Below are positions 11,255 through 63,960 of a stretch of DNA of 64,000 nucleotides, in pieces. Under the pieces are notes generated by a model that was not told the origin of the DNA, did not search any database, and saw nothing but the letters and a program-made list of their open reading frames with translations. The position numbers were made by a program, and so were the translations under genes. Position 1 is the first letter of the stretch, and each line of letters begins with the position of its first letter. The DNA is from Minisyncoccota bacterium (GTDB taxonomy: Bacteria; Patescibacteriota; Minisyncoccia; Phycocordibacterales; PALSA-1337): NCBI GenBank assembly GCA_028713005.1, contig JAQTPC010000001.1, forward strand, positions 33,414-97,413, given 5' to 3'.

Positions 11255-11255
11255 T

Positions 11256-39095: not shown

Positions 39096-39815
39096 TTAAA
39101 TTGATGAAATCTGACTGGCTGAAAGTATACCTGTATAAATCTTAACGTCATCAATCATGCCATCAAAACCACGCGTATCATCCCAAGGACTATTACCTAT
39201 ACCGACTTCTGTACCAGAAACAGGTGTACCAGCGTTCCCCTGTACATTCAATGATCCATTTATGTAAATTGAAACGTCCCCTGATTCAGTGCGGGCAACA
39301 CAGATATGATTCCAACTTCCCGGAACTATTGTGCCGGTAGTTGAAACTGAATTAGTGCCTCCATCATTTGAGACAGTAAAATTGCCAGATACATTGAGTG
39401 AAACTGAAAATGCATTGTTACTGATGAGCACTACCCCTGCAGGAGTTGAGTTGACGTTATACTCTGCACATACAGTTACAGAACCAGTACCAATCACATC
39501 ATTTGGAATGAGAGCACGGTTATCTCCTCCGTCAAACGAGATTGCAGAACCCGAAATTCCAGGTGCCCAAACAGAATCATCGGACAATATTGCATCGTTG
39601 CTATTACCTGAACTATCATGGGAGATCAGTGATTCGATTTCATCAAATGAAAGTTCCACTATGAGGGATCCATCAGCAAGGACCGGTGCTGTATATACAA
39701 AAGGCTCAATGTCAGCAGTTGTATAATCAGCATGAGCATAAGCGGCAAAGCCAGCAAAGACTGAAATAAGCGCACATAAAAGGCTTTTGTTGAGGATAGA
39801 TAAATTGAAATTCAT
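39096..39815 (-). CDS. secreted LamG/concanavalin-A-like lectin-fold protein
   Basis: Signal peptide, then …GNSNDAIL…ISGSAISFDGGDN…WNHICVARTESGDVSIYINGSL…FDGMIDDVKIY… LamG_3-like pattern. Confidence 0.6.
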   Translation of the reverse strand: MNFNLSILNKSLLCALISVFAGFAAYAHADYTTADIEPFVYTAPVLADGSLIVELSFDEIESLISHDSSGNSNDAILSDDSVWAPGISGSAISFDGGDNRALIPNDVIGTGSVTVCAEYNVNSTPAGVVLISNNAFSVSLNVSGNFTVSNDGGTNSVSTTGTIVPGSWNHICVARTESGDVSIYINGSLNVQGNAGTPVSGTEVGIGNSPWDDTRGFDGMIDDVKIYTGILSASQISSI

Positions 39816-39885
39816 ACTATCCTTTTATCATGGATAGTATGAATTGTCAATGTAACTTATTAACTTGTGAGCAACTAAAATCGAA

Positions 39886-40344
39886 CTATTTCTTTACAGG
39901 AGTCTTGACAGATGTAGTTGTAGTAGCCTTCTGAAGAACTGGCTGTTGCTGGTTTTCAAGAGGAGCTGCCTGACTTTCTGTAGTAAGAGGTATAACAGCG
40001 ACAATCTTGTTTGTTGTTGCACGATACAAGATTGCTTGCATAGCAGAAGCGTAAACAAGAAGAATATCTCCGTTTTCAACATTCTTGAAGAATGGCTGAT
40101 TTACAAGACTGTCCTTGTTTGTGACTATAGAAATATTTGGTGTTTCGTTTTGTGGAACAACAATGAGCTTTTGAACATTGTTTATGATCTCAAGTGCTTT
40201 CTGTTGTGCTGCTGCGTTTGGATCTTTTACGAGATCAGCGTATTTGTTGTGATAATAGTATCCCATCGAATATCCTCCAGCAACGATAGCTACGAGAACT
40301 ACAATGAGAATTATTTTTACAAAAGAAGGGATTTTGGCGAGCAT
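39886..40344 (-). CDS. hypothetical membrane-anchored protein (152 aa)
   Basis: N-terminal TM helix. Confidence 0.4.
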   Translation of the reverse strand: MLAKIPSFVKIILIVVLVAIVAGGYSMGYYYHNKYADLVKDPNAAAQQKALEIINNVQKLIVVPQNETPNISIVTNKDSLVNQPFFKNVENGDILLVYASAMQAILYRATTNKIVAVIPLTTESQAAPLENQQQPVLQKATTTTSVKTPVKK

Positions 40345-40462: not shown

Positions 40463-43400
40463 TTAAAATGAACTTGGAAAATCAATTACTGGCACAACTA
40501 TTGGCTTTGGTGTAGTTGTAGTCTTTACTGGAGGCGTTACTGTTTTTGTTGGCGCAACTACTTTTACTGGACTCGAAACTGGTTGAACTGTTGGCGCTGC
40601 AACTCCAGTCAAAGCTGCTCGTGTACGAGGCCCAGTTGCTCCGTAACCATTTGTTGCGGGGCTGCCAGAACACACGCTTATTGTTGCACATTGGAATCTT
40701 TTGACAGCAGCATCAGTCGCTGGGCCGAAATAGGTAGTTTCAAAACCACTTGAACCATTTCCATAACTTGCAACTGTGTACCCTTTTGCATTCAAAAGTT
40801 TTTGAAGAGTTTTGACTTGCTGACCTGTAACACCAAGCGAAAGGTATGATGTCAGTGCTGTGCCACTAATCATATTTGTGACAGCTGGTATTGGTACCAT
40901 AGGAGTTATAGCACTAGTAACTATAGGAACGAGGAGTGGTGTGAGTGCTCCGTTCAAAACATCACGTGTGCGAGGTCCTGTTGCTCCATAGCCATTGGTT
41001 GTAGCACTACCATAACAAATTGAAAGAACTGCGCACTGGAATTTTTTGAGTGCAACCTCAGTTGCGGGACCAAAATACGTCGTTTCGTTTCCTGGTGTAC
41101 CAAGTCCTGAAGTTGCTATGTAATATTTATTTGCATTAAGGAATTCTTGAAGCGCTTTGACATCGAGACCAAGAGATCCGGCAGAGAGAGTTCGTGTGAA
41201 CTGAAACTTTCCAGCATTGACGAATGGTTTTATCGCAAGAGTTGCTGTAGCAACTTTTGGCGGTGTGATATACAGTAAACCACCACCTCCTCCGCCACCG
41301 CCCGAAGAACCGCCAGGTGAACCTCCCCCACTACTTGGAATACTGATTGTAACTGACCCTGATGAGCTAGCGGATATATTGCCTGCAGCGTCCTTTGCCC
41401 AAGCATATAGAGTCTTTGTGCCTTCAGTGCCAAAAACGTATGCAGTAGGTGCCGTACCAACCCAGCCGGTATCATTCACCGATGGTAAACTTATTGATTC
41501 ATTTAACAAATAGCTTGTCACAGCCACGTTATCTGTTGCTACAAATGTAGTGATCGGAACTGTCAGTGAACTTGCAGTAGTCGGAATAGAAAATCCAGTG
41601 ATAACTGGTGCGGTAGTATCAGGTATAACAACCTGTAGTGTAGTTGTTGAAAGTATAGTGCCTGTAGTCGTACCCAGTGCACTCACTGCATATGCTCGAA
41701 AATAGTAAACGGTATTTGGGGTCAGGCTAATAAGATTTTGTGTGAAATCGCCTGTGCCACTGAAAGCACCAAGTGACGTGGTAGCAATCACCGTTGAAAG
41801 GTTTGCAGATGTACCATACGCAAATCCATGTTGAGTTGCATTATTTCCACCCGTACTGCTAACGTTCGCATTTAAAGTCAACGTTGAAGTAGATACCGAG
41901 CTTGGAGCTGATGTGGTGAGAGCATAAGGATATATGATAGCCGTCTGAGCCCTGAATGCGACCGACCCCATCGCCCAGTATGGGCTAGAATTTCCACTCA
42001 TCTCAACAGAATACGTACCGGGTGCATTTATAATTTGATATTCAGTAGCACTCATTTGAACAGGCTCTTCGTTCAATACAGTAAAACCTAATCCCGGAGA
42101 TACAGGTGAACCACCGCCAGACTCATCAGAAAGACCCACAAAGATAAGACCTGCTGGGTCAGTCAGTGTCAGATCACCAGTAGACCACAACGCACCTGCA
42201 TTCGCACCAGTTGACGAAGCTACAAATGGATCTGTGGTATCTAATCCTGACCATTCAGAGATATGGAAACCAAGGTCATCATACCCACCCGTAAGACTCA
42301 CCGTAACAGTATCAGGTCCACCTATAATATTTTTTGCGTAATATAGATACACTTTTGAGTTATTTCCAGAATCTTTTTCCGATACTTTCACAAAGGTATT
42401 GCTACTCGAATCTTGAATCGTAACATCACCCGCTCCGGCATTTATATAGCTACTTACTGCAACCACAATCAAGTTGCCAGCTGTCGTGTTACTCGTAAAT
42501 GAAAGGCCAGTTGGACCTTTTCCTGTCGGATATACTGAGCGATTCTGCACAAGCGCAGGTGTACCGAGGAGTACCTGCGTCGGTGTTGTAGTAGAAAGAA
42601 TCGCACCAGTTGATGTACCCGCAGAGTTTACTGCGTAGGCACGAAAATAATAGGTGGTATTTTGCGTAAGACCAGTGATATTTTGAGAAAAATTGCCAGT
42701 GCCACTAAAAGCACCGAGTGATGTAGTGGCAATCACCGTTGAGAGATTTGCTGATGTACCGTAAGTAAATCCGCGTTGAGTTGCATCTTCTCCCCCAGTT
42801 GCACTGATATTTGCATTAAGTGTGAGGGCTGACGGCGTTACTGAACTTGGTGCTGAGGTAGTAAGAGTTGGAATAAAAACTGACTGTGCTGAAGTGGTGA
42901 ATGTTTGATCAGTTGTCGTAGCTGTACCCGCAGAATTAGTTGCGAATGCCCGGTAGTGATAGAGAGTTGACGGAGTAAGACCGCTGATTGATTTTGAAAA
43001 TGTTCCAGCGCCAAATGAACCCGTCGTTGATGCTGTAGAGCCATATGAAGTCGTTAAACCGTAATTAAAACCTACGTCAGTCGAAGCATCACCACCGTCA
43101 GCAGTAATTGTTGCATTCAAAGTAACGCTAGACGAAGTCAGTGAGGTCGGCGAAGATGTGGCGAGCGTTGGCACAGTTGCCGAACCAGTCGTTCTGAAAG
43201 TTAAATCAGTAGTTGTTGAGGTTGACGAAGCAGTATCAACAGAAACAATCTGAAAATGATAGGTCTGTGCCGAACTGAGACCAGTGATAGAAACACTGTG
43301 TGTAAGTGTCTTAGCTGATGTATATGTTGAAGAAGATGTATAAGATGCTGTGGCTCCATAATTAACCAATGTATCGGCTGACCTATCAGTGTTCCAGGTG

Positions 43401-46024
43401 ATAGTAGCACTTGTTGCACCAGTAGACGATGCGATTGATGAAATAATAGTTGGCGCATATCCCTCAGCAATATTTGCTACATTTGTGGCGAGTAAAGCGT
43501 GACCAGCACGGTTTGGATGGATATATTCTATCTCATAGGTTGTTGGTCCAAACTGATTGACTGCACCGAAAATATTTCCAATATTAAAATAATATACTTT
43601 GCTATCAGACGGATAAGCAGCTTGATATGCAGCTAGACCTGCCTGAATCTCGGTAGTAAATTCAGAATTAACGTTTAAGTCATTAAGGGACAGAAAAGAT
43701 GGCATCAAAAATATTTTTGTATTTGGTCCGAGTTGAGTACGAGATAGCGTAAGAAGCTCTTTCACCGATGTCGTAATATCTGTCTGATAATCATTTGCAC
43801 CTTGAGCGATGACAAAATAGTCGAGATCAGATGGAAGTGGTTGAGCGTGCTGAGAGTCAACATAATCGAACGTGGCAGTCACATATGGTCCTGCTCCTAT
43901 CGTTCTATATCCTTGTCCACTATAGGCTTTGATACCCACTTCAGCATCGAGCTTTTGTCCGAATAACATACCCCAACTATCTTGAACATATGTCTGCCCA
44001 GTTGTCGTATGATCGACACCACTTGCGTCTGCCTCAGCCGAGTATCCACGTGTGATAGAGTCTCCCAGTATCATCATGCGTTTTGGTCTCAAACCATCTG
44101 CATACGTAGGGGTTGAAATTGATTTTCCTGCTTCAATCTCCCATCCGGTAATCTTTACCAATGAATTTGCTGGCCAACTATCTTCAACGCCACCCTGTTC
44201 ATAATAAACTTGGGCCGAATGACTTCCGCTTGATAAACCGGTAGCAAGAGTCATCACTTGTGTACTGACACCTGATTCTGGTTGAAGTTGTGCTCGCTGC
44301 CACGCACCACCGTCAATTTTCCAGTTGATGAATGGATAATTTGAAAATGCAGCACCAGAACGAATCAGTGTACTGAGGTCCGCATCAAGCTTGAGTGTAC
44401 TACCTGTAAAAACAAATTTTGCTGAACTACCAGTATGCATCATCTGTACACCAGAACCACTATCATACGTATTGCCTGGAGAATAGATCACACGGCTGTC
44501 ATTCGCTGCGACTACATCTGTAGCTAATACAACGTTCAGTGTTGTTGATGTCGCATTGCTTGGGTCACTAATTGTCAACGTACCTGTAGATGGACCAGTA
44601 GCTATAGTGATGGACGCATGTGTTGCATCTGTAACGGTTTGTGATGATATGGAGGCACCACTCACACCAGAAACAGTAAACGTAGGACTACCTGGAGTAC
44701 CAGAAGTCCAACCTGTTGCATTACCGGTAAGCTGTACGACAGTCGAAGCTGATGTAGGAATCCTTGTTTTATTTGCTACTGATCCACCTGAACAAGGTAG
44801 TGTTGTGAAATACGTACTTGATGCAGTACCGCTACCGTTAGCATTGGTAGCGTAAGCTCGATAAAAATATGTCGAATTACACGTAAGTCCGCCGATGCTC
44901 TGGCTATATGCACCTGCAGTAAATGTGCCCGCAGTAGATGCGTCTAAACCATATGACGTGCTTGTACCGTAACTAAAACCCTTAACGGTGGTTGAATATT
45001 GAAAAGCGAAATCATTTGAAATAACCCCATTGAGCGTTGCGCCTGTCGCAGTGATACTAGTAACACTTTGATTTACTATTGCAGGAACAGGTACATACGC
45101 TAAACCGGAACTATAGTACCCCTTTGATCCATCTGGTGCATACCATAGTCTCCACTGTCCTCCTCCGCCACCCTGATACCAACTTCTACCTGCATCATCT
45201 GAGTAATATAGCGCTACATTTCCTAAAGCAAAAATATGAATACCATCATTCGACATTGCGAGATCATCCCAATTATTCATGCCTGCAAATTTTAACGCTG
45301 TCCAGTTCGCACCGTAATCAATTGATTTGTATATATAACTATCTCTCGTACCCACATACATAACACCACTATCACCTACTACAACCGAACTTCCCTTAGC
45401 AGTTACACTTGAAACCGTATTCCATGTTGCACCAGAATCCGAAGAAACATGGATACTTCCATCATTGCCAAAATCATTAATGGAAACCATTGTCGCTCCA
45501 TCAGGTGATATAGCAACAGATCCACCACCAGTACCGTTGAGCACAGTAGTCCACGTAGCACCAGAACTTGTAGAGACAAGTGTAGATCCCCCTGTTTGTA
45601 AAATGAGATTTGCTCCACTAGCTGATGAAGCGATCCTTTGCCAAGAGATACCTGCACCAAGTACAGTTGAACTTGCCCAAGTTGTTCCTCCGTCAGTCGA
45701 ATAATAGACATAATCAATACATTGAGACGAACAGGTCGTTGCCCATACTTTTTGCCCATCTGCTGATGCTGCTATGGCATGCGAGTACACATTCCAAGCT
45801 CTTGAACCACCACCAGTAAGTGACGTCCAGGTTTTTCCTGTATCAATTGATTTTTCGAGATAGCCAGAGTTACCGAAACTAAGCGTATTTCGATACATCA
45901 CCAACTCACTCGTTGCTGAAGTCAAACTGCTCGCCGAGACAAAAGTATTGTTAGCATGAGCGAACTGCGTACCAATAGCTGTAACAGCAAAAGTAAAAAT
46001 GAGATATGGGTAGAGCCTCTTCAT
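40463..46024 (-). CDS. giant secreted protein, family A
   Basis: 1853 aa. Order: signal peptide; BNR/Asp-box (S-x-D-x-G-x-T-W) beta-propeller; Fn3-like domains; SGNH/GDSL hydrolase (…MMILGDSITRGY…GANDYQTD…IHPNRAGH); more Fn3 domains; Gly-rich linker; two PG_binding_1 repeats (…FQCAVLS…); Pro/Thr/Lys tail ending …KPIVVPVIDFPSSF. Confidence 0.75.
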   Translation of the reverse strand: MKRLYPYLIFTFAVTAIGTQFAHANNTFVSASSLTSATSELVMYRNTLSFGNSGYLEKSIDTGKTWTSLTGGGSRAWNVYSHAIAASADGQKVWATTCSSQCIDYVYYSTDGGTTWASSTVLGAGISWQRIASSASGANLILQTGGSTLVSTSSGATWTTVLNGTGGGSVAISPDGATMVSINDFGNDGSIHVSSDSGATWNTVSSVTAKGSSVVVGDSGVMYVGTRDSYIYKSIDYGANWTALKFAGMNNWDDLAMSNDGIHIFALGNVALYYSDDAGRSWYQGGGGGQWRLWYAPDGSKGYYSSGLAYVPVPAIVNQSVTSITATGATLNGVISNDFAFQYSTTVKGFSYGTSTSYGLDASTAGTFTAGAYSQSIGGLTCNSTYFYRAYATNANGSGTASSTYFTTLPCSGGSVANKTRIPTSASTVVQLTGNATGWTSGTPGSPTFTVSGVSGASISSQTVTDATHASITIATGPSTGTLTISDPSNATSTTLNVVLATDVVAANDSRVIYSPGNTYDSGSGVQMMHTGSSAKFVFTGSTLKLDADLSTLIRSGAAFSNYPFINWKIDGGAWQRAQLQPESGVSTQVMTLATGLSSGSHSAQVYYEQGGVEDSWPANSLVKITGWEIEAGKSISTPTYADGLRPKRMMILGDSITRGYSAEADASGVDHTTTGQTYVQDSWGMLFGQKLDAEVGIKAYSGQGYRTIGAGPYVTATFDYVDSQHAQPLPSDLDYFVIAQGANDYQTDITTSVKELLTLSRTQLGPNTKIFLMPSFLSLNDLNVNSEFTTEIQAGLAAYQAAYPSDSKVYYFNIGNIFGAVNQFGPTTYEIEYIHPNRAGHALLATNVANIAEGYAPTIISSIASSTGATSATITWNTDRSADTLVNYGATASYTSSSTYTSAKTLTHSVSITGLSSAQTYHFQIVSVDTASSTSTTTDLTFRTTGSATVPTLATSSPTSLTSSSVTLNATITADGGDASTDVGFNYGLTTSYGSTASTTGSFGAGTFSKSISGLTPSTLYHYRAFATNSAGTATTTDQTFTTSAQSVFIPTLTTSAPSSVTPSALTLNANISATGGEDATQRGFTYGTSANLSTVIATTSLGAFSGTGNFSQNITGLTQNTTYYFRAYAVNSAGTSTGAILSTTTPTQVLLGTPALVQNRSVYPTGKGPTGLSFTSNTTAGNLIVVAVSSYINAGAGDVTIQDSSSNTFVKVSEKDSGNNSKVYLYYAKNIIGGPDTVTVSLTGGYDDLGFHISEWSGLDTTDPFVASSTGANAGALWSTGDLTLTDPAGLIFVGLSDESGGGSPVSPGLGFTVLNEEPVQMSATEYQIINAPGTYSVEMSGNSSPYWAMGSVAFRAQTAIIYPYALTTSAPSSVSTSTLTLNANVSSTGGNNATQHGFAYGTSANLSTVIATTSLGAFSGTGDFTQNLISLTPNTVYYFRAYAVSALGTTTGTILSTTTLQVVIPDTTAPVITGFSIPTTASSLTVPITTFVATDNVAVTSYLLNESISLPSVNDTGWVGTAPTAYVFGTEGTKTLYAWAKDAAGNISASSSGSVTISIPSSGGGSPGGSSGGGGGGGGLLYITPPKVATATLAIKPFVNAGKFQFTRTLSAGSLGLDVKALQEFLNANKYYIATSGLGTPGNETTYFGPATEVALKKFQCAVLSICYGSATTNGYGATGPRTRDVLNGALTPLLVPIVTSAITPMVPIPAVTNMISGTALTSYLSLGVTGQQVKTLQKLLNAKGYTVASYGNGSSGFETTYFGPATDAAVKRFQCATISVCSGSPATNGYGATGPRTRAALTGVAAPTVQPVSSPVKVVAPTKTVTPPVKTTTTPKPIVVPVIDFPSSF

Positions 46025-46081
46025 TACCCTTCATTATAACTTATGATAAGACTAAAACAACCGATATTTAAAATGTTTCCC

Positions 46082-49000
46082 TTAGAAATTGAAATTGATA
46101 CTTGGTACAACCACTGGCTTTACAGTTGTTGTTTTAACAGGCACCGTTGCTGTAGTCGGAGTTTTTGTTGGAGTAGGTACACTAGCTGGAGTAACGGTAT
46201 TTGTCTGAGTGACTGGCGCAGTCGTACCACCCAATGCTGCACGAGTACGAGGACCTGTCGCACCATAACCAGTTGTCAGCGGTGAACCTGAACATACAGA
46301 AAGTACTGCACACTGGAATTTCTGAAGCGCTACCTGTGTAGATGGACCAAAATATGTAGACTCATTTCCAACTGACCCATTACCTGATGTGGCTATAGTG
46401 TATCCTTTAGCATTCAAAATCTTTTGTAGTGTTTTAACTTGTTGACCAGTTGTGCCCAAGAACAGATATGAAGTAAGTGCACTACCCGAAGAAGTGGTTG
46501 TTACGGACCCTGTCGCACTAACATTAGAACGACTCGCACGATATTGAGCTACAGCATTTGCTGTTAACTGACCGTAGTAGCCAGTAGCATAAACTGAAGA
46601 CAGGTAGCCACCTGCTATGAGATATTTTTGCAATGTGAGTACAGCAGTTGAGCGAGAACCGAATTCAAGGTTGAGGTATGCAGTCGGGATAGAACCAGTT
46701 GTTGGCGGAACAATTGTTGTTGTTACTGGTGCTGAAATATTTTGTATAACAGTATTCGCACTGCCTGCGTCGAATTTTGCAAAAACAGACATTGAGGATG
46801 ACAAGGTAACGGTACAAGTTGATGTGGCAAACGATGCGCAACCGCTCCATGATGTTAGATGTGAATATTTGTCTGGAATAGCAGTCAAAGTAATCTTTGA
46901 ACCGGCATAGAATGCCGAAGTACACTTTGAGCTACAGAGTATACCTGAAGGGTTTGAAGTTGTAGTACCATGACCTGTTCCGGTAGTTTGGATAGTAAGA
47001 CTATAGTATGTTCCCCCGCCCCCTCCGCCACCACCGCTATAGACGACAGGGTTACCTCCGCTCGTACTACAAGCAGATGTGGTAAATGTTCCATCACTTG
47101 TAACTCCAGTTCCTGAGAAATTTATTGCATATGCTTGGTAATGGTAAGTAGTGCCACACGTGAGGCCGGTGAGTGTTTTTGAGAATGCCCCTGTATTGAA
47201 ATGTCCCGAAGTAGATGATGTTGCAGAATAATCCACCGTTGCACCGTACCTGAAACCAAGTTCAGTCACACTGCTACCACCTGTAGTGTCCACATTTGCA
47301 TTAAGATCAGCACCTGTCTGAGTTATTGTCCCAATCGTTGATACTGAAACAGTAGGAGGAACAACACTTACACAGTCAGTTGTATTAAATGTTTGATCTG
47401 AGCTTGATGCAGTCCGTTGTACATAACTACCAGTTGCACCATCAAAATTGCGAGCATAGAACATATAATGATATGTAGTGCCACATGACAAATCATTGAT
47501 AGTTGCCGTCACCGCTGCATCAGTATTATTTAAACTTGCATCAAGAGTTCCTGAGAAATCAGTTGAACTTGCATATGCTGTGTCAGTGCCATATTTGAAA
47601 CCACGCTGATTGATGAAACTTCCTCCTGTATAGAGAACTGAAGCGTTAAATGTTACATCTGACGCTGTTATACCTGTGGCTGTAGGTGTTGATATTGTTG
47701 GGGCAACGACTGGCACACTCGAAGAAGCGTATATCATTTTAATATACTGTTTTTCCGCTGTATTAAACCAAGAATTAAACAATGTGACGCTACCGTGTCT
47801 GACCGCATTTACCAGCTCCCAGTAATGATCCACGAGTTCAGGAGTGACTTCGTTGTTTGAGTTGACTGCAACCGCAGCCTCGGGGTAAATATCACCGATA
47901 TTACCTATCGTTCCAGGCCCACCATAAAATCCCTGAAGTCGTGTGTACTTGAATGGTATACCAACGGTATACTCAAGAAGTGTCGTGTTCTCAGGCATGA
48001 GCAATACATCGGGGATATCCTGGTGAACCTGAATCATGTCAGTTCCCGCAATCCAATCGGTACTATCGATATAGAATATGGTAACACCCCATCGACTCTT
48101 GGCATAGTTAATCTTATCCTTGAGTAACTGAATGCGAGCCGCAGTATCAGTCACATACTGCTGACTTGGGCGCACGCCGTAAATGCCATATAGTCCACCC
48201 CCACCACAACCAAGATTTGCATCACCGGGATCATATACGATTTGATCTGGACGTATTGTAATACCTGCTCTGAGTCCATTATCAAGTATCTTATGGAAAG
48301 CTGCATCAATAACATTCATTGAGGTACTCGAATAATTTGCACTTGGATTCGTAGTACTCGAATACACGTAGTTAACTTGCGTATCCCATTCAGGTGCAAA
48401 ACGAGGATCTTCAGCGTAGCGAGGATCACCTATGTATGATGTACAATGCGGCCAACGTTGTCCTTCGAGATCCCACAAGATGACACCTTGACCATTAACT
48501 TCTTTTACATTTGCAATATCCGCATCAATGCGTGCCAGCATCTGTGTCGCCCAGGCTTGTCTACCTTCTGGTGTAGTCACGTCGACACTTCCCGGATCAA
48601 TGCCATTCGAGAACCAACCATTCATATTTTTTGAAAAATCAGATGCGCAACCATTTACAATTGGACAAGGTGGTGAAGACAAGAAATCAGTACCTATAGG
48701 TCGGCGATCTGACCAAAAATTTTGCATCGGATACTGTGCTGTCCATGCTGAAATCACTTCGGGTACAGCCTCAAGTAGACTGGTACCGAGTGGGTAAAAC
48801 TTGATTGCATTTGTAGCAGTAACAGTCGTACCATGTGGCACACTTCCTATGGAAGTCGAGAGTAGGCACCATGGTGTTGGGCTGCCACAGTCACCTGTGA
48901 CTTTATTCGTATTTACTAAAAAGAGTTCACCAAAAGTAGTATTAAAACCCCAAATGTTAGGGTAATCTCCCGCTTGGCTTGTCGGCAATGAATCACCTGT

Positions 49001-49501
49001 ATAACCTGTTATATTTAAGCCGCCCATATGGAATGACAGGTAACCAATATCAGTCGCAGTATTATTGGTAACTGAAACGTGTATATCAATACTTGGACCA
49101 TTTTGCACAAACTGCAGTGATGCGTTTCCTTGGCTATAGTTGAATGTAAGTGTGTTGGTCTGAGAATCAAATACAGTTCCTTGATCTGAACCAAGAGACA
49201 TGCTGCCGCCACTAGTATTTTGTATTTCTCGAATATTGATACATGTATTTTGTCCCGGGTCTTTAAAATCACCTCCATTATATGTGAGACTTGTAAACAT
49301 ATATCCACAACTTACTGGACCAATAGTAAATGATGGACTATTTAGTGCATACGTACTCTGAATATTCGCAAGAAGACTTGTGGTGAACGTGATTGCTATA
49401 AGAATGAATGTAACCCAGTGTGTTACCTCAGACAATGGATGCTCATGCCAAAGTCGATAGAGTGGAAATTTTCTTGATAAGTGTGAGTGTAAAAAGTCCA
49501 T
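46082..49501 (-). CDS. giant secreted protein, family B
   Basis: 1139 aa. Order: conserved N-terminal LYRLWHEHPLSEVTHW followed by a TM helix; beta-sandwich region; about 450-aa conserved TIM-barrel-like central domain (…VILWDLEGQRWPHCTSYIGDPRYAEDPRFAPEWDT…WGVTIFYIDSTDWIAGTD…); Fn3-like domains; Gly8 linker; divergent InlB-B repeat; two PG-binding repeats; tail …KPVVVPSINFNF. Confidence 0.7.
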   Translation of the reverse strand: MDFLHSHLSRKFPLYRLWHEHPLSEVTHWVTFILIAITFTTSLLANIQSTYALNSPSFTIGPVSCGYMFTSLTYNGGDFKDPGQNTCINIREIQNTSGGSMSLGSDQGTVFDSQTNTLTFNYSQGNASLQFVQNGPSIDIHVSVTNNTATDIGYLSFHMGGLNITGYTGDSLPTSQAGDYPNIWGFNTTFGELFLVNTNKVTGDCGSPTPWCLLSTSIGSVPHGTTVTATNAIKFYPLGTSLLEAVPEVISAWTAQYPMQNFWSDRRPIGTDFLSSPPCPIVNGCASDFSKNMNGWFSNGIDPGSVDVTTPEGRQAWATQMLARIDADIANVKEVNGQGVILWDLEGQRWPHCTSYIGDPRYAEDPRFAPEWDTQVNYVYSSTTNPSANYSSTSMNVIDAAFHKILDNGLRAGITIRPDQIVYDPGDANLGCGGGGLYGIYGVRPSQQYVTDTAARIQLLKDKINYAKSRWGVTIFYIDSTDWIAGTDMIQVHQDIPDVLLMPENTTLLEYTVGIPFKYTRLQGFYGGPGTIGNIGDIYPEAAVAVNSNNEVTPELVDHYWELVNAVRHGSVTLFNSWFNTAEKQYIKMIYASSSVPVVAPTISTPTATGITASDVTFNASVLYTGGSFINQRGFKYGTDTAYASSTDFSGTLDASLNNTDAAVTATINDLSCGTTYHYMFYARNFDGATGSYVQRTASSSDQTFNTTDCVSVVPPTVSVSTIGTITQTGADLNANVDTTGGSSVTELGFRYGATVDYSATSSTSGHFNTGAFSKTLTGLTCGTTYHYQAYAINFSGTGVTSDGTFTTSACSTSGGNPVVYSGGGGGGGGTYYSLTIQTTGTGHGTTTSNPSGILCSSKCTSAFYAGSKITLTAIPDKYSHLTSWSGCASFATSTCTVTLSSSMSVFAKFDAGSANTVIQNISAPVTTTIVPPTTGSIPTAYLNLEFGSRSTAVLTLQKYLIAGGYLSSVYATGYYGQLTANAVAQYRASRSNVSATGSVTTTSSGSALTSYLFLGTTGQQVKTLQKILNAKGYTIATSGNGSVGNESTYFGPSTQVALQKFQCAVLSVCSGSPLTTGYGATGPRTRAALGGTTAPVTQTNTVTPASVPTPTKTPTTATVPVKTTTVKPVVVPSINFNF

Positions 49502-49514
49502 ATGAGTATATTAC

Positions 49515-50390
49515 TTATCGTGTCGTCACGGTCACCATACGTGAATTTGAGGCAGTTACTACGCATGATTTTCCTGACATACTTTCACATCCTTTCCAAA
49601 TTAAAATACTTTGTGCATCATCCTGAGTGGCAGTCAATATAACTTTGGTGCCGAACGTAAACTTATGCGAACAAATTGCTCCACAAGAAATACCGGTTGG
49701 ATTTGAATTGATTTCAATATTTTCTTTGGTAAACACAAAAATTGGGTACGTAACATATTCCGTTTCCTTACTTCCAGATGGAACCACTAAACCGTCGTTA
49801 AGTGAAATAATTTTAGGTAAAACTTTTGGTACCACATCATCAATCTTAGCAATTATTTTATCTTCTGTCTTTGTAGTTGAAGCAACGTCAGGATTAATGG
49901 CTACATTTTCAGTAGTAACTGAACTTGATGATGCTGTATGTTCAGAAGTGATACCGCCGATGATTGGTGATGGCACTGGAGTTTCCGTGCTTGATGTATT
50001 TGTATCAGTAGTAGTTGCGACACTATCTGTACTCGTAGCAGCTGGTACAACAACAGAAACTGCTGTGTCTGTTGTATTTGTTTGAGTCGAGCTCGCTTGA
50101 TCTATTGTTTCAGCAGGGACAGCTACAGTACTCGTACTTTCAGTATTTATTAGTGGACTATTATCAGTAGTTTGCTCCGTCACTATTGTGTTGTCCTCTG
50201 TAGTAGAAGCATTTCCATCAACTGTTTGTGCATAGCTATTTACTGCAAATAATAGATTTGCCGTAAGTACACAACTGATTGCCATAAATGAAACCCAGTG
50301 GGTGGTTCCGGCAAGTGGATGCTTATGCCAACTATAATATGCTGGAACAGTGCGAGATAGGAAGTCGTGGAGACTTTTCATAAGCAACAT
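49515..50390 (-). CDS. family-B-related short protein
   Basis: 291 aa. Carries the same N-terminal …YYSWHKHPLAGTTHW… segment and TM, a Thr/Ser-rich linker, and a C-terminal divergent InlB-B repeat (…ISCGAICSHKFTFGTKVILTATQDDAQSILIWKGCESMSGKSCVVTASNSRMVTVT…). Confidence 0.55.
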   Translation of the reverse strand: MLLMKSLHDFLSRTVPAYYSWHKHPLAGTTHWVSFMAISCVLTANLLFAVNSYAQTVDGNASTTEDNTIVTEQTTDNSPLINTESTSTVAVPAETIDQASSTQTNTTDTAVSVVVPAATSTDSVATTTDTNTSSTETPVPSPIIGGITSEHTASSSSVTTENVAINPDVASTTKTEDKIIAKIDDVVPKVLPKIISLNDGLVVPSGSKETEYVTYPIFVFTKENIEINSNPTGISCGAICSHKFTFGTKVILTATQDDAQSILIWKGCESMSGKSCVVTASNSRMVTVTTR

Positions 50391-50421
50391 AGTAACACGA
50401 AATGAAACTAATGCCTATAAT

Positions 50422-53391
50422 TTACTTTTTACCTCCTCCACGAATATTGAACTTAATTGAAGCGGTTTTTGCAGCAGAGATATTGCCTGCAGCATCTTTT
50501 GCCCATGCGTAAAGTGTTCGTGATCCTGTGGTCATTTTGAATGTATACGATGTAAGTGGTGCAGTTTTCCATGAAGCACTCGTCACTGATGGAATAGTTG
50601 ATGATTCACTTACAAGATAACCTGTAACTCCAACATTATCAGTTGCACTATATGCAGTGATTGGTACAGTTGCTGTTATTGATGTTGAAGGAATAGTAAA
50701 TACTGTAACGACTGGTGAAGTAGTATCCCCTCCCGTTGTAGTATTTTGAGTGAACGATGCAGTGACAGTGATATCTCTAGATACATTGTTATCTGTGCGA
50801 GGATTTGCAGTTATTCCGTCTGACCAGCTTACGAAATGGAATCCACTATTTGCAACCGCAGTTACCGAAGAACCATTTGCCCCTGCTGTGACACTTTGTG
50901 GTGATGTGCCTGTAATAGAGCCGTCAGGTCCAGCAGTGTAAGTGAGAATATATGTAGTTGGTGCAACAACAATATTTATGACAACAGTTGCACTCTTGCT
51001 TGCAGATATATTTCCTGCAGCATCCATGACCCATGCATACAATGTCTTTGATCCCGAACTACCAAATGTATATGATGTTGGAACTGAACCTGACCATGCA
51101 GTATCACCCAAGGAAGGTACCGTTGATGTTTCTTTGATAAGGTATGCGGCAACGCCAACATTATCAACAGCAGTGAATGTAACCGGAACAGTGAGGCTCG
51201 CTGATGTAGAAGGAATAGCGAATGAAGTAATAGACGGACCTGTCGTATCAGAAGAGGGTGGAGGATTCGTTGTACCGCAACCAGTTCCTGTTGTCGTGAA
51301 TGTTTGATCAGCACCATATCCTGTGAGTTCGGTATGCAGACCGGTTCCTCCTGAAAAATTCTTTGCGAAGGCACGATAGTGGTACGTAGTTCCACAGGTA
51401 AGACCCGTAACACTTAGATTGAAATTTGCATCTATATTGTTTAGGTTCACATCAAACGCTCCGTCTGCCTTAACAGAAGAGCCGTATGAGGTCGTTGGAC
51501 CATATTCAAATCCACGAGTAATCACATATGTACCGCCTGTTGCACTAACTATACCGTTCAACGTTGCATTTGTATCACCTACAGCACTTGCTCCCGTTGA
51601 TACTGTGGGTGCTACGACCGGAAGCGCAGCTGCTGCATATACCATCTTTATATATGGCTTTTCAGATCCGTTATACCACGAGTTAAACAAACTTAAACTA
51701 CCATTTCTAATTGCATCTACAAGCTCCCAGTAATGGTTAACAAATTCATTCTGTTCATTATTTGCATTAAGTGCTGCTCCTGCACGTGGATATATATCAC
51801 CGATATTACCTATCTTTCCTGGTCCACCATAGAACCCTTGTTTATTTGTATATTTGAATGGCAAACCAACTGAATACTCGAGCAAAGTTGTATTTTCAGG
51901 AATGAGAAGTACATCTGGGATGTCTTTGTGCAACTTAATCATATCAGTACCAGCAATCCAATCAGTACTGTCAATATAGAAGATGGTGACACCCCAACGA
52001 TTCTTTGCAAAATTGATCTTATCCTCAAGCAACTTTATACGAGCATTCGTATCGGTAAGATATTTTTGACTTGGACGAATGCCAAATATGCCATATGTTC
52101 CTCCTCCACCACAACCGAGATCAGCGTTATTTGGATCATACGTTATCTCATCTGGACGAATGGTAATACCGGACTTGAGTCCATTATCTCGAATCTTGTG
52201 AAAGACAACATCGATAACATTCATTGAAGAACTTGAGAAACCACTACCAGGATCGGAGTAAGCTATCTTTGTATCCCACTCAGGCGCAAAACGAGGGTCT
52301 TCTGCATAGCGAGGGTCGCCAATATATGACGTACAGTGTGGCCAGCGTTGACCTTCGAGATCCCACAAGATGACACCTTGACCATTAACTTCTTTAACAT
52401 TTGCTATGTCTGCATCAATACGAGCGAGCATCTGTGTAGCCCACGCTTGTCTACCAGCAGAAGTTGTCACATCAACATTTCCTGGATCAGAACCATTTGA
52501 GAACCAGCCGTTCATATTTTTTGAAAAATCAACAGAACAACCGTAAATAGGACATGGTGGTGAAGAAAGGAAGTCAGTTCCGATAGGTCGACGATCTGAC
52601 CAAAAATTTTGCATCGGATACTGTGCTTTCCATGCAGCTATGACTTCAGGAACAGCTTCGAGTAGACTAGTTCCGAGTGGATAAAACTTAATAGCATTTG
52701 TAGCAGTAACAGTTGTGCCGTGAGGTATGTTACTGATCGAAGTTGACATCAAGCACCATGGCGATGGATTACCACAATCACCGGTGACTTTATTTGTATT
52801 AACAAAGAAAATTTCACCGTAGGTTGTGTTTACACCCCAAATATTAGGATAATCTCCTCCCTGACTCATTGGCAACGAATCTCCCGTATAACCAGTTATA
52901 TTGAGACCTCCTACATGGAAAGCGAGATAACCAATATCAGCAGACGTATTGTTTGTAACTGAAAGGCGCATATCTACACTTGGACCATTTTGGATGAACT
53001 GTATTGACGCACTACCTTGACTAAACTTCAAGGTCACCGTATTGCTTTGAGGGTCAAATAAAGTACCCTGATCTGCACCGAGAGATATTCTGTTTCCATT
53101 TGTATCTTGTATTTCTCGTATATTGATACACTGGTTTTGTGCCGGATCAGCAAAACTTGCTCCGTTGTACGATAGAGCAGTAAGCGCATAACCACAACCA
53201 ACCTGACTAACAGTAAATGATGATGGCGTGTATCCTGCAAACGATTTTTGAATGTTAGCAAGAAGACCCGTGGTGACAGAGAGAGATATGAGTATAAAAG
53301 CAAACCAATGTGTTGCCTCAGACAATGAATGCTCGTGCCACAAGCGATATAGAGGAACTTCCTTACATAGCTTGGCGTGAATTTTTCTCAT
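50422..53391 (-). CDS. giant secreted protein, family B paralogue
   Basis: 989 aa. N-terminal LYRLWHEHSLSEATHW plus TM. Its central domain is about 85-90% identical in nucleotide sequence over long stretches to 46082-49501. Fn3/Ig-like repeats follow. Confidence 0.7.
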   Translation of the reverse strand: MRKIHAKLCKEVPLYRLWHEHSLSEATHWFAFILISLSVTTGLLANIQKSFAGYTPSSFTVSQVGCGYALTALSYNGASFADPAQNQCINIREIQDTNGNRISLGADQGTLFDPQSNTVTLKFSQGSASIQFIQNGPSVDMRLSVTNNTSADIGYLAFHVGGLNITGYTGDSLPMSQGGDYPNIWGVNTTYGEIFFVNTNKVTGDCGNPSPWCLMSTSISNIPHGTTVTATNAIKFYPLGTSLLEAVPEVIAAWKAQYPMQNFWSDRRPIGTDFLSSPPCPIYGCSVDFSKNMNGWFSNGSDPGNVDVTTSAGRQAWATQMLARIDADIANVKEVNGQGVILWDLEGQRWPHCTSYIGDPRYAEDPRFAPEWDTKIAYSDPGSGFSSSSMNVIDVVFHKIRDNGLKSGITIRPDEITYDPNNADLGCGGGGTYGIFGIRPSQKYLTDTNARIKLLEDKINFAKNRWGVTIFYIDSTDWIAGTDMIKLHKDIPDVLLIPENTTLLEYSVGLPFKYTNKQGFYGGPGKIGNIGDIYPRAGAALNANNEQNEFVNHYWELVDAIRNGSLSLFNSWYNGSEKPYIKMVYAAAALPVVAPTVSTGASAVGDTNATLNGIVSATGGTYVITRGFEYGPTTSYGSSVKADGAFDVNLNNIDANFNLSVTGLTCGTTYHYRAFAKNFSGGTGLHTELTGYGADQTFTTTGTGCGTTNPPPSSDTTGPSITSFAIPSTSASLTVPVTFTAVDNVGVAAYLIKETSTVPSLGDTAWSGSVPTSYTFGSSGSKTLYAWVMDAAGNISASKSATVVINIVVAPTTYILTYTAGPDGSITGTSPQSVTAGANGSSVTAVANSGFHFVSWSDGITANPRTDNNVSRDITVTASFTQNTTTGGDTTSPVVTVFTIPSTSITATVPITAYSATDNVGVTGYLVSESSTIPSVTSASWKTAPLTSYTFKMTTGSRTLYAWAKDAAGNISAAKTASIKFNIRGGGKK

Positions 53392-60741: not shown

Positions 60742-63700
60742 TTACTTTGGCTGGGTTCTAAACGTAGAGACTGCTGATGTTGACTGTGTTCCACTGACCG
60801 AATCAACTGCCGTAATCTTGAAATAATATTTCGTACTCTTTGTGAGACCAGAGATAGTCAGCACATGTAAAGTAGATAGATTGGTATCATTTGCAACTGA
60901 GCCAGTTGCTTTGTTGGTGAGACCATATGAGATATTGCCTGTAGATGGTACATTTGTATTCCATTTGATCGTCGCTGTTGTAGCGGTCTTCTGAGAAACT
61001 GAGAACGAAGTTATCGCCACCGGTGTTGGACCAGTAACAATAGGTTGAGGAACCGTAACAGAAACGGTATTACTCTGCGCAGAGAGATTTCCCGCAGCAT
61101 CAGAAGCGACGACGGTGTAGCTATACGTACCTGGAACAACACTATTATCTGTATATGATGTTGACGGAGCAGTAGCGATTGTTTGACCATTACGGAGGAT
61201 GGCATAACCTGTTATACCGACATTATCTACCGAAGCAAACCACGTAAGTTTAACTGAGCTTGAGTTAGGTGCAATTGCAGTGAGATTTGTCGGTGGTGTA
61301 GGTGCTGTAGTATCCGGAACAACTACTACAACATCTTTTTCAAATTGAGCTGTAACACTAACATTGCTTGAAACCGACACATCAGTTCTTGGGTTAGCCG
61401 TAGAGCCATCAGACCAATTTAGGAAATGGTACCCCGTATTAGCTACAGCGGTGACAGAACTCCCATTGGCACCGGAGTTAATAGTTTGCGTAAGTGACCC
61501 AGTAATATTACCGTTTGCACCTGCTGTATACGTAAGCGTATATGTGGTTGTTGTAGGTGGTTCAACAGGAGGCGTCACACCAGAAACATATTGACTAGCA
61601 ATTTCAACTATCTTTGAAGCCAATAATGCGTGGCCAGGCTTATTTGGATGAATTGCGTCATTTGTATATGTCATTGGGCCATAGGGGTTTGCTGCACCGA
61701 ATATATTTCCGATACTAAAGAAATAGACACGACTATCTGATGGATTAGTGGCTTTGTACGCAGCGAGACCAGCCTGTATTTGTGAAGTTACTTCTGGGTT
61801 ACCATTTATATTATTGAGAGTAAGGAATGAAGGCATCAGGAAGATATAGGTATTCGGACCAACCTGAGCACGAGCCATCCTCAACAGCTCTTTTACAGAA
61901 GTGGTGACATCCGTCTGATAATCATTTGCACCCTCAGCAATGATGAGATAATCGACGCCATATGGTAATGGTTGCGCATGGATATAGTCGAGATGATCAA
62001 ATGTTGCAGTAACTGATGGGCCGGAGCCATATTTTCTGTACCCTGCACCACTGTATGCCTTGATACCCACCTCAGCATCGAGCGCTTGTCCGACAAGCAT
62101 AGCCCAACTATCTTGTACAAATGTACTGCCTGTACCTGTATGATCTACTCCGCTCGAATCAGCTTCTGCATTATATCCACGTGAAATAGAGTCACCCAAA
62201 ACAATCATGCGCTTTGAACGTAAACCTGTTGCAGCAGTCGGAGCTGATATTGTCTTTCCAACATCCACCTCCCAGCCCGTGACATTGACCGCGGAACGTG
62301 CGTACCATGTATCTTCAAATCCGCCTTGCTCGTAGTACACCTGAACCGAGTGGTCACTATCTGCCAAACCACTCGCTAAAACTACCGTCTGTGTGCTTTT
62401 ACCTGTATCAGGACGGAACTGGGCGCGTTGCCATGCGCCATTATCGATCTTCCAGTTGACATACGGGTACTTTGAGAAAGCTACACTATCTTCTAACCAC
62501 AAACTAAGATCCACATCCATCTTGAGGAAGCTACCAGTAAAACCAAATTTTGCTGAAGTGCCTGTTTGGTTTACCTGCACATATGTACCTCCATTATAGA
62601 CATTACCTGGTGTGTAAAATATACGTGTGTCATTTGGTGCAATCAAAGTTGAAGGTTCAGCAGATGGAGTTCCTGGTGATCCGGCGCACAGCGAGGTTGT
62701 GAAATATCCACCCTTTCCATATCCAGTGCCATTTGCATTTGTCGCATAGGGACGGAAGAAATACGTAGTACCACACGTAAGGCCACTAATATTTTGAGAG
62801 TATGATCCAGCGGTGAATGTGCCGTTCATGACAACTCTTGACCCATATGCATTTGTTGTACCGTATTCAAAACCGCGAACAGATGTCGAATACTGGAATG
62901 CAAAATCATTAGCAACTGACGCATTGAGCGTTGCTCCTGTCGAAGTGATGTTTGTAGCACCCATACTTGTGACTAGTGGTATTGGCACATAGGCTGAGCC
63001 GCCACTAAAATACGCTTTTGAACCATCTGCGGCGACCCACAATCGCCACATACCACCGCCTGGACCTTGGGTCCAATTTGCTCCAGCAGAATCAGAATAA
63101 AAGAGTGCCACGTTTCCTAATGCGAGAATATGTACACCGTCATCTGAAATCGCAAGGTTTTGCCAATGATTCATGCCAGCAGAGGTGAGCGCTGTCCATG
63201 TTGCCCCATAATTTGTAGATTTATAAATATAAGTATCACTTATACCAACATACATGACACCATTGGCACCGACAGCGACTGAGGCTGCTTTGCCAGGAAT
63301 GCTCGTAACTTTACTCCATGTTGTGCCTGCATTTGTAGATATGTTGATACTCCCATCACTGTCTGGATTATTCAAAGAAACCATTGTTGCCCCATCAGGT
63401 GAAATAGCGACTGTACCACGACCCACTCCATCAAGTGTAGTTTTCCATGTAGCACCCGCATCAGTTGAAACCATGGTCGCCCCCATACTTTGCAAAATAA
63501 GAGTATTCCCACTTGCAGATGAAGCTATTTTCCACCACGATAAACTTGGTCCCAGCACAGTAGAGCTTGCCCATGTCGTACCTCCATCAGTTGAAAAATA
63601 CACATAATCAACGCACTGCGAAGCACATGTTGTTGCCCAGACTTTCTGACCGTCAGCAGAAGCTGCAATTGCTCCCTGAAACACATTCCATGCCTTTGAG

Positions 63701-63960
63701 CCGGAGCCCGTCAAGCTTATCCATGTTTTTCCAGTATCAATAGATTTTTCGAGATAGCCAGATGTGCCGAAATTAAGGGTATTACGGTACATGACTAGTT
63801 CACGTGATGAAGGAGCAAGATTAGCAGCATTGACCCACACATTGTTACCTGAACCTACACCAGCATTTGCTTGCTGACTTGTCATCATAGTTGCCAAACC
63901 GAGTGCCATAGCTATCACAAAACTTGAGAGAATAAAGAGGTGGGATTTTTTAATTTTCAT
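60742..63960 (-). CDS. giant secreted protein, family A paralogue
   Basis: 1072 aa. Order: signal peptide; BNR/Asp-box propeller about 75% identical to the N-terminus of 40463-46024; SGNH hydrolase (…MIVLGDSISRGY…GANDYQTD…IHPNKPGH); C-terminal Fn3-like domains. Confidence 0.75.
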   Translation of the reverse strand: MKIKKSHLFILSSFVIAMALGLATMMTSQQANAGVGSGNNVWVNAANLAPSSRELVMYRNTLNFGTSGYLEKSIDTGKTWISLTGSGSKAWNVFQGAIAASADGQKVWATTCASQCVDYVYFSTDGGTTWASSTVLGPSLSWWKIASSASGNTLILQSMGATMVSTDAGATWKTTLDGVGRGTVAISPDGATMVSLNNPDSDGSINISTNAGTTWSKVTSIPGKAASVAVGANGVMYVGISDTYIYKSTNYGATWTALTSAGMNHWQNLAISDDGVHILALGNVALFYSDSAGANWTQGPGGGMWRLWVAADGSKAYFSGGSAYVPIPLVTSMGATNITSTGATLNASVANDFAFQYSTSVRGFEYGTTNAYGSRVVMNGTFTAGSYSQNISGLTCGTTYFFRPYATNANGTGYGKGGYFTTSLCAGSPGTPSAEPSTLIAPNDTRIFYTPGNVYNGGTYVQVNQTGTSAKFGFTGSFLKMDVDLSLWLEDSVAFSKYPYVNWKIDNGAWQRAQFRPDTGKSTQTVVLASGLADSDHSVQVYYEQGGFEDTWYARSAVNVTGWEVDVGKTISAPTAATGLRSKRMIVLGDSISRGYNAEADSSGVDHTGTGSTFVQDSWAMLVGQALDAEVGIKAYSGAGYRKYGSGPSVTATFDHLDYIHAQPLPYGVDYLIIAEGANDYQTDVTTSVKELLRMARAQVGPNTYIFLMPSFLTLNNINGNPEVTSQIQAGLAAYKATNPSDSRVYFFSIGNIFGAANPYGPMTYTNDAIHPNKPGHALLASKIVEIASQYVSGVTPPVEPPTTTTYTLTYTAGANGNITGSLTQTINSGANGSSVTAVANTGYHFLNWSDGSTANPRTDVSVSSNVSVTAQFEKDVVVVVPDTTAPTPPTNLTAIAPNSSSVKLTWFASVDNVGITGYAILRNGQTIATAPSTSYTDNSVVPGTYSYTVVASDAAGNLSAQSNTVSVTVPQPIVTGPTPVAITSFSVSQKTATTATIKWNTNVPSTGNISYGLTNKATGSVANDTNLSTLHVLTISGLTKSTKYYFKITAVDSVSGTQSTSAVSTFRTQPK

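Follow-up and report, generated by a model that had tools for sequence, protein, structure and literature searches.

The stretch of DNA analyzed here (the window) spans 64,000 nucleotides of contig JAQTPC010000001.1 from a Minisyncoccota bacterium, and our subject is a block of four contiguous minus-strand genes (40463-53391), together with a fifth gene at 60742-63960, that encode exported modular proteins. The original prediction, made from the sequence alone, had placed five genes at these positions with products of 1853, 1139, 291, 989 and 1072 amino acids (aa), and open reading frames (ORFs) and translations confirm all of them. Within the block the genes are separated by gaps of 57, 13 and 31 bp. 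The genes and their principal modules are as follows.

40463..46024, minus strand: family A, 1853 aa, MDD5164996.1, named 'peptidoglycan-binding protein' at NCBI (ORF, translation, Pfam, NCBIfam)
40625..41167, minus strand: two PG_binding_1 repeats of the 1853-aa protein (Pfam 2.1e-16, two stretches)
43451..44512, minus strand: esterase module of the 1853-aa protein, resembling carbohydrate esterase family 2 (CE2) (Lipase_GDSL_2 4.4e-14, above cut-off; motifs)
46082..49501, minus strand: family B, 1139 aa, MDD5164997.1, named 'peptidoglycan-binding protein' at NCBI (ORF, Pfam, model)
47717..49333, minus strand: family-B head (β-sandwich and barrel) of the 1139-aa protein (AlphaFold2 model, fold matches, conservation)
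49515..50390, minus strand: 291-aa protein with no enzymatic head (ORF; no Pfam match)
50422..53391, minus strand: family B, 989 aa, MDD5164999.1, named 'hypothetical protein' at NCBI (ORF, Pfam, alignment)
60742..63960, minus strand: family A, 1072 aa, named 'GDSL-type esterase/lipase family protein' at NCBI (ORF, Pfam, NCBIfam)

These products had been described as giant secreted proteins in two paralogous families, a description that survives in part. The 1139-aa and 989-aa proteins (family B) are 70% identical over their first 704 aa, and the 1853-aa and 1072-aa proteins (family A) are 62-65% identical in two blocks, the propeller and the esterase; the 291-aa protein belongs by its sequence to neither family. 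Export is supported by hydrophobic N-terminal segments in four of the five proteins, strongly so in the 1072-aa protein, and by a signal-like N terminus seen in the translation of the fifth, the 1853-aa protein. The word giant overstates the case for proteins of 1-1.9 kaa. Exact 1853-, 1139-, 989- and 1072-aa proteins are on record at NCBI, encoded on a 113.6-kb contig from a 'Candidatus Pacebacteria bacterium' metagenome-assembled genome (MAG), and the 291-aa gene appears there as a 288-aa version (MDD5164998.1, 'hypothetical protein'), the exact 291-aa sequence being recorded only in Logan.

With respect to domain composition, the 1853-aa protein comprises a signal peptide, a BNR propeller (aa ~40-310), Fn3-like and Ig-like modules, a CE2-like sandwich (~505-645) and an SGNH esterase (646-858), followed by three Fn3 modules, an unannotated 211-aa domain (1150-1360), Fn3-like and Ig-like modules, a Gly linker, two PG_binding_1 repeats and a Pro/Thr tail. 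Its 1072-aa paralog has a signal peptide, a BNR propeller (aa ~55-325), an Fn3-like module, a CE2-like sandwich (440-580), an SGNH esterase (581-795), an InlB-B repeat and two Fn3 modules, and lacks PG_binding_1. In family B, the 1139-aa protein consists of an N-terminal signal or anchor (hydrophobic aa 26-48), a β-sandwich (57-236), a (β/α)8 barrel (237-595), two Fn3-like modules, an InlB-B repeat, two PG_binding_1 repeats and a Pro/Thr tail; the 989-aa protein carries a signal or anchor, a β-sandwich and barrel head (aa 57-590), an Fn3-like module, an Ig-like module, an InlB-B repeat and a further Ig-like module, again with no PG_binding_1.

The family-B head

The conserved domain of family B was originally put at roughly 450 aa and likened to a triosephosphate isomerase (TIM)-barrel hydrolase. 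Both motifs quoted in support of it (ILWDLEGQRWP and FYIDSTDWIAGTD) occur in both family-B proteins, and the TIM-barrel likeness is upheld by AlphaFold2 and Foldseek; the size is to be revised to ~540 aa, made up of a β-sandwich of ~180 aa and a barrel of ~350 aa. Specifically, an AlphaFold2 model of the head of the 1139-aa protein, built on a 55-sequence alignment, has a predicted local distance difference test (pLDDT) score of 84.4 and a predicted template modeling (pTM) score of 0.88, with query residues 1-180 forming the β-sandwich and ~205-539 an eight-stranded (β/α) barrel. The model, a β-sandwich joined to a (β/α)8 barrel, is not the non-enzymatic β-sandwich or adhesin repeat that had been named beforehand as the finding that would speak against an enzymatic core. 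The best Foldseek matches in the PDB are almost all glycosidases, namely GH36 α-galactosidases (E 3e-10), GH129, a GalN-specific galactosaminidase, GH31 MYORG, GH101 and GH13. Because sequence identity in these matches is only 8-11%, the relation of family B to glycosidases is one at the level of fold.

The most conserved parts of the head lie at strand ends of the barrel. In the numbering of the 1139-aa protein, the motif Q338-G-x-x-x-W343-D344-x-E346-G follows strand 2, R417-P follows strand 3, Y477-x-D479-S follows strand 4 and P503-E504 follows strand 5. Across 262 domains, 16 residues are each at least 95% conserved among ungapped sequences (W263, D265, R267, N292, Q338, G339, W343, D344, E346, G347, E371, R417, K463, Y477, D479 and E504), and all 16 are present in both copies in the window. 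With the exception of the two glycines, these residues are candidates for the active site. The conserved acidic residues are placed at the C-terminal ends of strands 2, 4 and 5. In GH13-type retaining enzymes an Asp follows strand 4 and a Glu follows strand 5, and by this analogy we propose that the nucleophile is most likely D479 and the acid/base most likely E504 or E346.

In the model, the head has the fold of clans GH-D and GH-H, with D479 after strand 4 and E504 after strand 5 as judged from the secondary structure. Its two-domain plan and barrel are those of GH36, GH31, GH129, GH101, GH13 and their relatives, several of which have an N-terminal β-sandwich, and the conserved Asp after strand 4 (FYIDS in family B) and Glu after strand 5 would match the GH13-type arrangement; unlike these families, family B has an additional invariant WD-x-EG after strand 2, shows no detectable sequence relationship to them and has catalytic residues that are so far candidates. 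Membership by sequence in GH36, GH31, GH129 or GH13 was not found, in that the head is covered by no Pfam or NCBIfam family in the 55 members and a profile built from family B recovered nothing among PDB sequences. More broadly, the first ~600 residues gave no Pfam match (E up to 10) and no NCBIfam match, Pfam domains are absent from the head region in all 55 aligned members, and neither phmmer nor an hmmsearch with the 55-sequence profile against all PDB sequences returned a match to the head. The modeled fold suggests a glycoside-hydrolase-like domain that was previously unannotated.

Relatives of this domain are numerous. A word-index search returned 107 homologs, all labeled 'hypothetical' and including proteins from Capsulimonas corticalis, Labrys monachus, Bryobacteraceae and Planctomycetota, and an exhaustive profile search returned 1,728 representatives of 50%-identity clusters, 1,004 of them at E<=1e-30. 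Named matches beyond the Patescibacteria come from Armatimonadota, Acidobacteriota (Bryobacteraceae), Planctomycetota and Alphaproteobacteria. A literature search with the locus tag of the Capsulimonas homolog gave no papers. A link to phage depolymerases or plasmid exopolysaccharide (EPS) loci was considered and rejected, as neither a search of BFVD viral structures nor tblastn searches of phages and plasmids gave meaningful matches. A close relative of the Patescibacteria type, P0228 (1639 aa), carries two family-B heads in tandem together with the same PG_binding_1 cassette and tail.

Carbohydrate-related neighbors accompany seven of the eight family-B homologs of free-living bacteria that we inspected, an uncontrolled count. 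In two large genomes (P0009 and P0040) the homolog is divergent from a Wza-Wzc-Wzx-GT4-GT4 export and synthesis cluster. The Labrys homolog (P0049) lies in an island of glycosyltransferase, epimerase and acyltransferase genes, P0035 sits behind genes for an MBOAT acyltransferase and a methyltransferase, and the Capsulimonas homolog (P0025) adjoins a pair of GH95 genes and sugar-catabolism genes (Aldolase_II and a DeoR regulator). P0014 shares its operon with genes for sugar isomerase and oxidoreductase, flanked by GH4 and GH3, and P0029 is near a GDSL esterase and GH15; the neighborhood of P0013 is uninformative. PelA/GH166, Sph3/GH135, Ega3/GH114 and PslG are TIM-barrel enzymes encoded next to polysaccharide synthesis and export genes, and some family-B homologs, but only some, share this placement of a barrel gene. 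Unlike those hydrolases, family B has none of these families among its listed Pfam, NCBIfam or fold matches, and its Paceibacteria copies lie outside EPS clusters.

The family-A propeller and esterase

Family A had been described as a BNR/Asp-box propeller followed by an SGNH/GDSL esterase and Fn3 modules, an architecture that Pfam bears out. Each protein has one propeller of ~280 aa with six Asp-boxes spaced ~41 aa apart. Above curated cut-offs, both propellers match BNR and Sortilin-Vps10; PSII_BNR is matched weakly and BNR_6 is also matched. The sialidase-like character originally attributed to the propeller did not hold up: BNR_2/sialidase gave no Pfam match to either propeller even at E=10, and a FRIP motif was not seen when the translated propellers were read by eye, no pattern search having been run. 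By sequence, the closest solved natural relatives in the PDB are the repeats of GH74 xyloglucanases and Ycf48, and database homologs of the propeller are labeled 'photosystem II stability/assembly factor-like'. GH33-type sialidases are six-bladed propellers with a FRIP motif and an Arg triad. Sialidase blades are larger than the ~41-aa blades of Ycf48, GH74 and sortilin, and in view of both the blade size and the profile result we rejected a GH33-type sialidase.

Family A therefore resembles the small-bladed BNR/Asp-box propellers (Ycf48/HCF136, Sortilin-Vps10 and the domains of GH74 xyloglucanases), with which it shares Asp-boxes every ~41 aa and the same profile and PDB sequence matches. In GH74 enzymes, two tandem seven-bladed propellers form the catalytic cleft, and Ycf48 is a non-catalytic assembly factor. 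Unlike GH74, family A has a single propeller, and GH74 membership was rejected on this ground, the GH74 matches being local repeat matches. Since a GH74 enzyme requires a pair of propellers and each family-A protein has a single one, the propeller is most likely a binding or scaffolding module rather than a sialidase, one that would bind or position a glycan without cleaving it. Beyond these proteins, the complete fusion of propeller and esterase occurs in just two database entries, which are 80-82% identical. The 211-aa domain of the 1853-aa protein (aa 1150-1360; window 41945-42577), which lies between Fn3 modules, has a β-rich look, is absent from the 1072-aa paralog and gave no Pfam match even at E=10.

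The esterase module is the better defined enzymatic part of family A. Lipase_GDSL_2 covers model positions 1-178 of 178 in both proteins, at 52-54 bits against a cut-off of 32.9. The SGNH blocks I (GDS), II (Gly), III (GxND) and V (D/E-x-x-H) are intact in both paralogs, in keeping with the expectation that the catalytic Ser, Gly, Asn and His would be conserved. Specifically, the 1072-aa protein has G-D-S591 (I), G638/640 (II), G-A-N679-D (III) and D768-A-I-H771 (V), and the 1853-aa protein has GDS with Ser656 (I), GANDY with Asn744 (III) and E833-Y-I-H836 (V). Directly N-terminal to the complete SGNH domain lies a β-rich segment of ~140 aa, which matches CE2_N below threshold (23.7 bits against a cut-off of 27.9) in the 1072-aa protein only. 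NCBIfam AxeC2 is matched partially, at 8e-10 to 9e-11 (8.9e-11 in the 1853-aa protein) and far under its equivalog cut-off, and the best solved match of the module is PDB 2WAA (E=0.006). An AlphaFold model of the module on a four-sequence alignment gave β strands in the sandwich region at pLDDT 50 and was not used for a fold search.

CE2 enzymes deacetylate acetylated xylan or glucomannan. The matches to CE2_N, AxeC2 and 2WAA point to a CE2-like module rather than a sialate esterase, and we consider that the family-A esterase is probably active and resembles this acetylxylan/glucomannan type. CE2 is defined by an N-terminal β-sandwich (jelly-roll) directly before the SGNH domain, and a displaced, atypical or missing Block V acid is usual among its members (PMC9487903). 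Family A is like the Cellvibrio japonicus CE2 enzymes (PDB 2WAA) and Clostridium thermocellum CtCE2 in having a putative sandwich before an SGNH domain with blocks I, II, III and V, and in the variability of the Block V acid, one paralog having E-x-x-H. It differs from them in that the module is set in surface proteins of 1,000-1,900 aa behind a BNR propeller, and the similarity is remote.

Surface modules, mosaic evolution and genomic surroundings

One member of each family was expected to end in two PG_binding_1 (PF01471) repeats, and these are present above the Pfam cut-off in the 1853-aa and 1139-aa proteins (60.3 and 50.3 bits against 23). The C-terminal cassettes, each comprising the two repeats and a tail, are 66% identical between the two proteins, and relatives of the cassette sit on M23 and C1 peptidases and on other Paceibacteria proteins. 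The Pro/Thr-rich tails occupy 40466-40624 in the 1853-aa protein (ending ...VVPVIDFPSSF) and 46085-46231 in the 1139-aa protein (ending ...VVPSINFNF). Their extreme C terminus, ...KP[IV]VVP[SVT]I[DNT]F..F, recurs in P0228, P0373 and P0374 and not in other PG_binding_1 proteins, and could be a lineage-specific sorting or wall-insertion signal. As for the stalks, the Fn3 and InlB-B modules originally described are likewise supported: Flg_new_2 (InlB B-repeat; cut-off 23.6 bits) is matched in three proteins, those of 1139, 989 and 1072 aa, with scores of 25.4, 40.2 and 44.7, and in family A fn3 reaches 35.2 and 40.5 bits against a curated cut-off of 25.

The middle of the 291-aa protein is of low complexity and rich in Ser/Thr, its C-terminal part is a small Cys-containing β domain, and Pfam gave no match even at E=10. 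Over 60 aa its N terminus shares 43% identity with family B, and the C-terminal Cys-containing β domain is weakly common to both. In both family-B proteins and the 291-aa protein, a segment of ~25 residues, [VFI]P-x-Y-x-x-W-H-[EK]-H-[PS]-[LI]-x-x-x-x-x-H-W, precedes the hydrophobic signal or anchor helix (N termini at 49346-49501, 53236-53391 and 50235-50390 of the window). It is conserved in orthologs on a soil metagenome contig, L088 (L088 1509-1670 and 4544-4700). The only profile hint, Mpo1-like at E=0.15, is not significant, and such a segment appears unusual for a plain Sec signal.

Contig L088 is also syntenic: behind dnaJ (89% aa identity) it encodes orthologs of the 989-aa protein (992 aa) and of the 291-aa protein (286 aa), in this order, and then a third, divergent family-B head. 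Because the block thus lies beside dnaJ in a sister genome as well, we regard it as a stable part of the lineage. Neither family was found in any of 80 dnaK loci from related Patescibacteria genomes. Compared part by part, the 989-aa protein gave the following identities.

β-sandwich: 32% with the L088 ortholog (L088 1509-4487), 73% with the 1139-aa paralog
Barrel: 58% with the L088 ortholog, 80% with the 1139-aa paralog
Fn3-like: 70% with the L088 ortholog, 47% with the 1139-aa paralog
C-terminal Ig/InlB stalk: 80% with the L088 ortholog, 30% with the 1139-aa paralog

The head is nearer to the in-genome paralog and the stalk to the positional ortholog, and heads and stalks therefore have different histories, making these proteins mosaics. 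Compared with dnaJ, the family-B heads change much more rapidly, and the β-sandwich evolves fastest of all. At the DNA level the two heads in the window are 74.5% identical and their longest identical run is 44 nt, and on this ground a recent gene conversion between them was rejected.

The surroundings of the block consist of housekeeping genes (murG, ftsW, scpAB, trpS, dnaK/J, grpE, other tRNA synthetases, GAPDH and transketolase), and an M23 peptidase is encoded in the same window as murG and ftsW. DnaK, which is encoded between the two parts of the gene set, shares 79-80% identity with its counterparts in Candidatus Taylorbacteria/Paceibacterota MAGs. The episymbiotic setting suggested at the outset is plausible because the host genome belongs to the Paceibacteria, which fall within the Candidate Phyla Radiation (CPR). 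A promoter and terminator scan of the block gave counts no higher than the shuffled background and does not inform operon structure, and Rfam and tRNA scans of the window gave no matches. Directly downstream of the block and on the same strand, two genes within 39096-40344 encode a Laminin_G_3 protein and a protein of 152 aa that begins with a membrane helix and is without Pfam match; both may be additional members of the surface set. The first of these is as follows.

39096..39815, minus strand: secreted 239-aa Laminin_G_3 protein with a concanavalin-like lectin/glucanase fold (Pfam 7e-23; N-terminal hydrophobic signal in translation)

Elsewhere in the window, the usual grpE-dnaK-dnaJ order is broken by small ORFs: several of 110-170 aa, without Pfam match, lie at 56960-58435 and 59156-60606, between dnaK, grpE and the 1072-aa gene. 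Transketolase is split into two genes (10406-12767), one for the N-terminal TPP-binding part and one for the pyrimidine-binding and C-terminal part. A dip in GC content (0.353 at 18001-20000) within 16911-20344 covers Schlafen/AlbA_2, DUF2726 (restriction-endonuclease-like) and SPFH/Band 7 genes and an unannotated 276-aa ORF, and this stretch may be a small defense or mobile island.

Proposed function and alternatives

Taken together, these observations lead us to favor, with moderate confidence, a reading in which the block encodes Sec-exported, surface-retained, modular carbohydrate-active enzymes with which the Paceibacteria cell de-O-acetylates and cleaves an extracellular polysaccharide. 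This analysis shows which domains the proteins contain, that their esterase motifs are intact, how the barrel folds, how far residues are conserved and where the organism belongs; we infer catalytic activity, cooperation of the two families, the identity of the substrate and the wall that is bound. In the proposed scheme, the CE2-like SGNH esterase of family A would strip O-acetyl groups from the polysaccharide, with the propeller binding or positioning the glycan, and the family-B barrel would then cleave its backbone. The Fn3, Ig and InlB-B modules would act as stalks, and the paired PG_binding_1 repeats with the Pro/Thr tail would tether one member of each family non-covalently to peptidoglycan, so that products are held at the surface of a sugar-fermenting, metabolically reduced cell, which they would provide with sugars. 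The polymer, presumably acetylated, may be the capsule or EPS of a partner, close to what the original prediction had in mind, or a free polymer of the environment.

Several points weigh against this scheme. A glycosidase role for family B would be one without a sequence link to any CAZy or Pfam family, and the assignment to CE2 leans on weak sequence matches and on an esterase model of low pLDDT. Cooperation of the families is suggested by adjacency alone, with 7 kb between the block and the second family-A gene. PG_binding_1 is missing from two of the four enzymes, whose retention at the surface would need another basis. The EPS association is suggestive and appears not to be universal: when 80 metagenome loci were searched by tblastn with genes for Wza, Wzc, Wzx and GT, only glycosyltransferases were recovered, in 6 of the 32 long loci, and so the link is partial or the genes are too divergent for this test.

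Of the other explanations, one is peptidoglycan-directed lytic machinery. Here the SGNH domain would be an Ape-like O-acetyl esterase and the barrel a muramidase- or glucosaminidase-like enzyme, with PG_binding_1, instead of acting as an anchor, directing both to their substrate, the wall of a host in a parasitic attack or that of the cell itself in remodeling. PG_binding_1 is typically fused to wall hydrolases, the same cassette occurs on Paceibacteria M23 peptidases, and the window itself encodes an M23 peptidase along with murG and ftsW. Moreover, esterases that combine a β-sandwich with an SGNH domain include Ape1 (PMC9487903). We nonetheless judge this unlikely, because the best sequence affinities of the esterase are with CE2 xylan/glucomannan esterases and not with Ape, half of the block's enzymes have no peptidoglycan-binding module, and Cwp19 is just one among hundreds of equally scored TIM-barrel matches. 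In addition, PG_binding_1 is absent from the precomputed Pfam lists of the eight inspected family-B homologs, seven of which are in EPS or sugar-catabolism contexts.

That the proteins are mainly adhesins, whose β-rich repeats attach the cell to a partner and whose lectin-like heads have little or no turnover, is in our estimation quite unlikely. For Parcubacteria, an adhesin role has already been proposed for large (>1500 aa) β-rich repeat surface proteins (Nelson & Stegen 2015; PMC4508563), and the present proteins share with them the phylum-level group, the size class and the repeat-rich β architecture. An Fn3, Ig or InlB-B stalk makes up most of each protein, and the far faster divergence of the head (β-sandwich 32%) than of the stalk (80%) or dnaJ (89%) is as expected of partner-recognition surfaces. 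Unlike the proposed adhesins, the proteins here bear a defined cassette for peptidoglycan binding and enzyme heads that can be recognized and are apparently intact; neither paralog has lost a catalytic SGNH block, and the acidic and aromatic constellation of the barrel, conserved as it is over 262 domains, is hard to explain without catalysis. As for a sialidase-type propeller that, with a sialate/acetyl esterase, would remodel a sialoglycan-like partner surface, the Asp-box repeats and the adjoining acetyl-esterase speak for it, and the missing sialidase profile, the small blades, the GH74/Ycf48-type relatives and labels, and the unseen FRIP motif render it highly improbable.

We tentatively raise a broader possibility, namely that the family-B head founds a new glycoside hydrolase or transglycosylase family whose native role, in free-living bacteria, would be to trim or turn over exopolysaccharides of the Wzx/Wzy type. 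This head would have been captured by a Paceibacteria lineage, duplicated and mounted on wall-tethered stalks along with the rare propeller-CE2 fusion; the pair would digest the acetylated capsule or biofilm matrix of a partner, and the fast-diverging β-sandwich would set partner specificity.

Large modular surface proteins of Parcubacteria, SGNH esterases and PG_binding_1 anchors are already known kinds. Two elements are new: the family-B heads, a large family whose modeled fold is that of glycosidases and whose conserved residues resemble an active site, yet for which our searches of Pfam, NCBIfam and PDB sequences gave no match, and the propeller-CE2 fusion, which is rare. If the enzymes act on common plant or microbial polymers, they would simply be further modular surface carbohydrate-active enzymes. 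A single characterized member of family B would annotate well over a thousand protein clusters. Much of bacterial diversity falls to the CPR/Patescibacteria, and their carbon acquisition and engagement with partners are largely unknown; for both questions, this block provides expressible candidates in the form of a wall-binding cassette, an acetyl-esterase with intact motifs and a barrel with a conserved putative active-site constellation.

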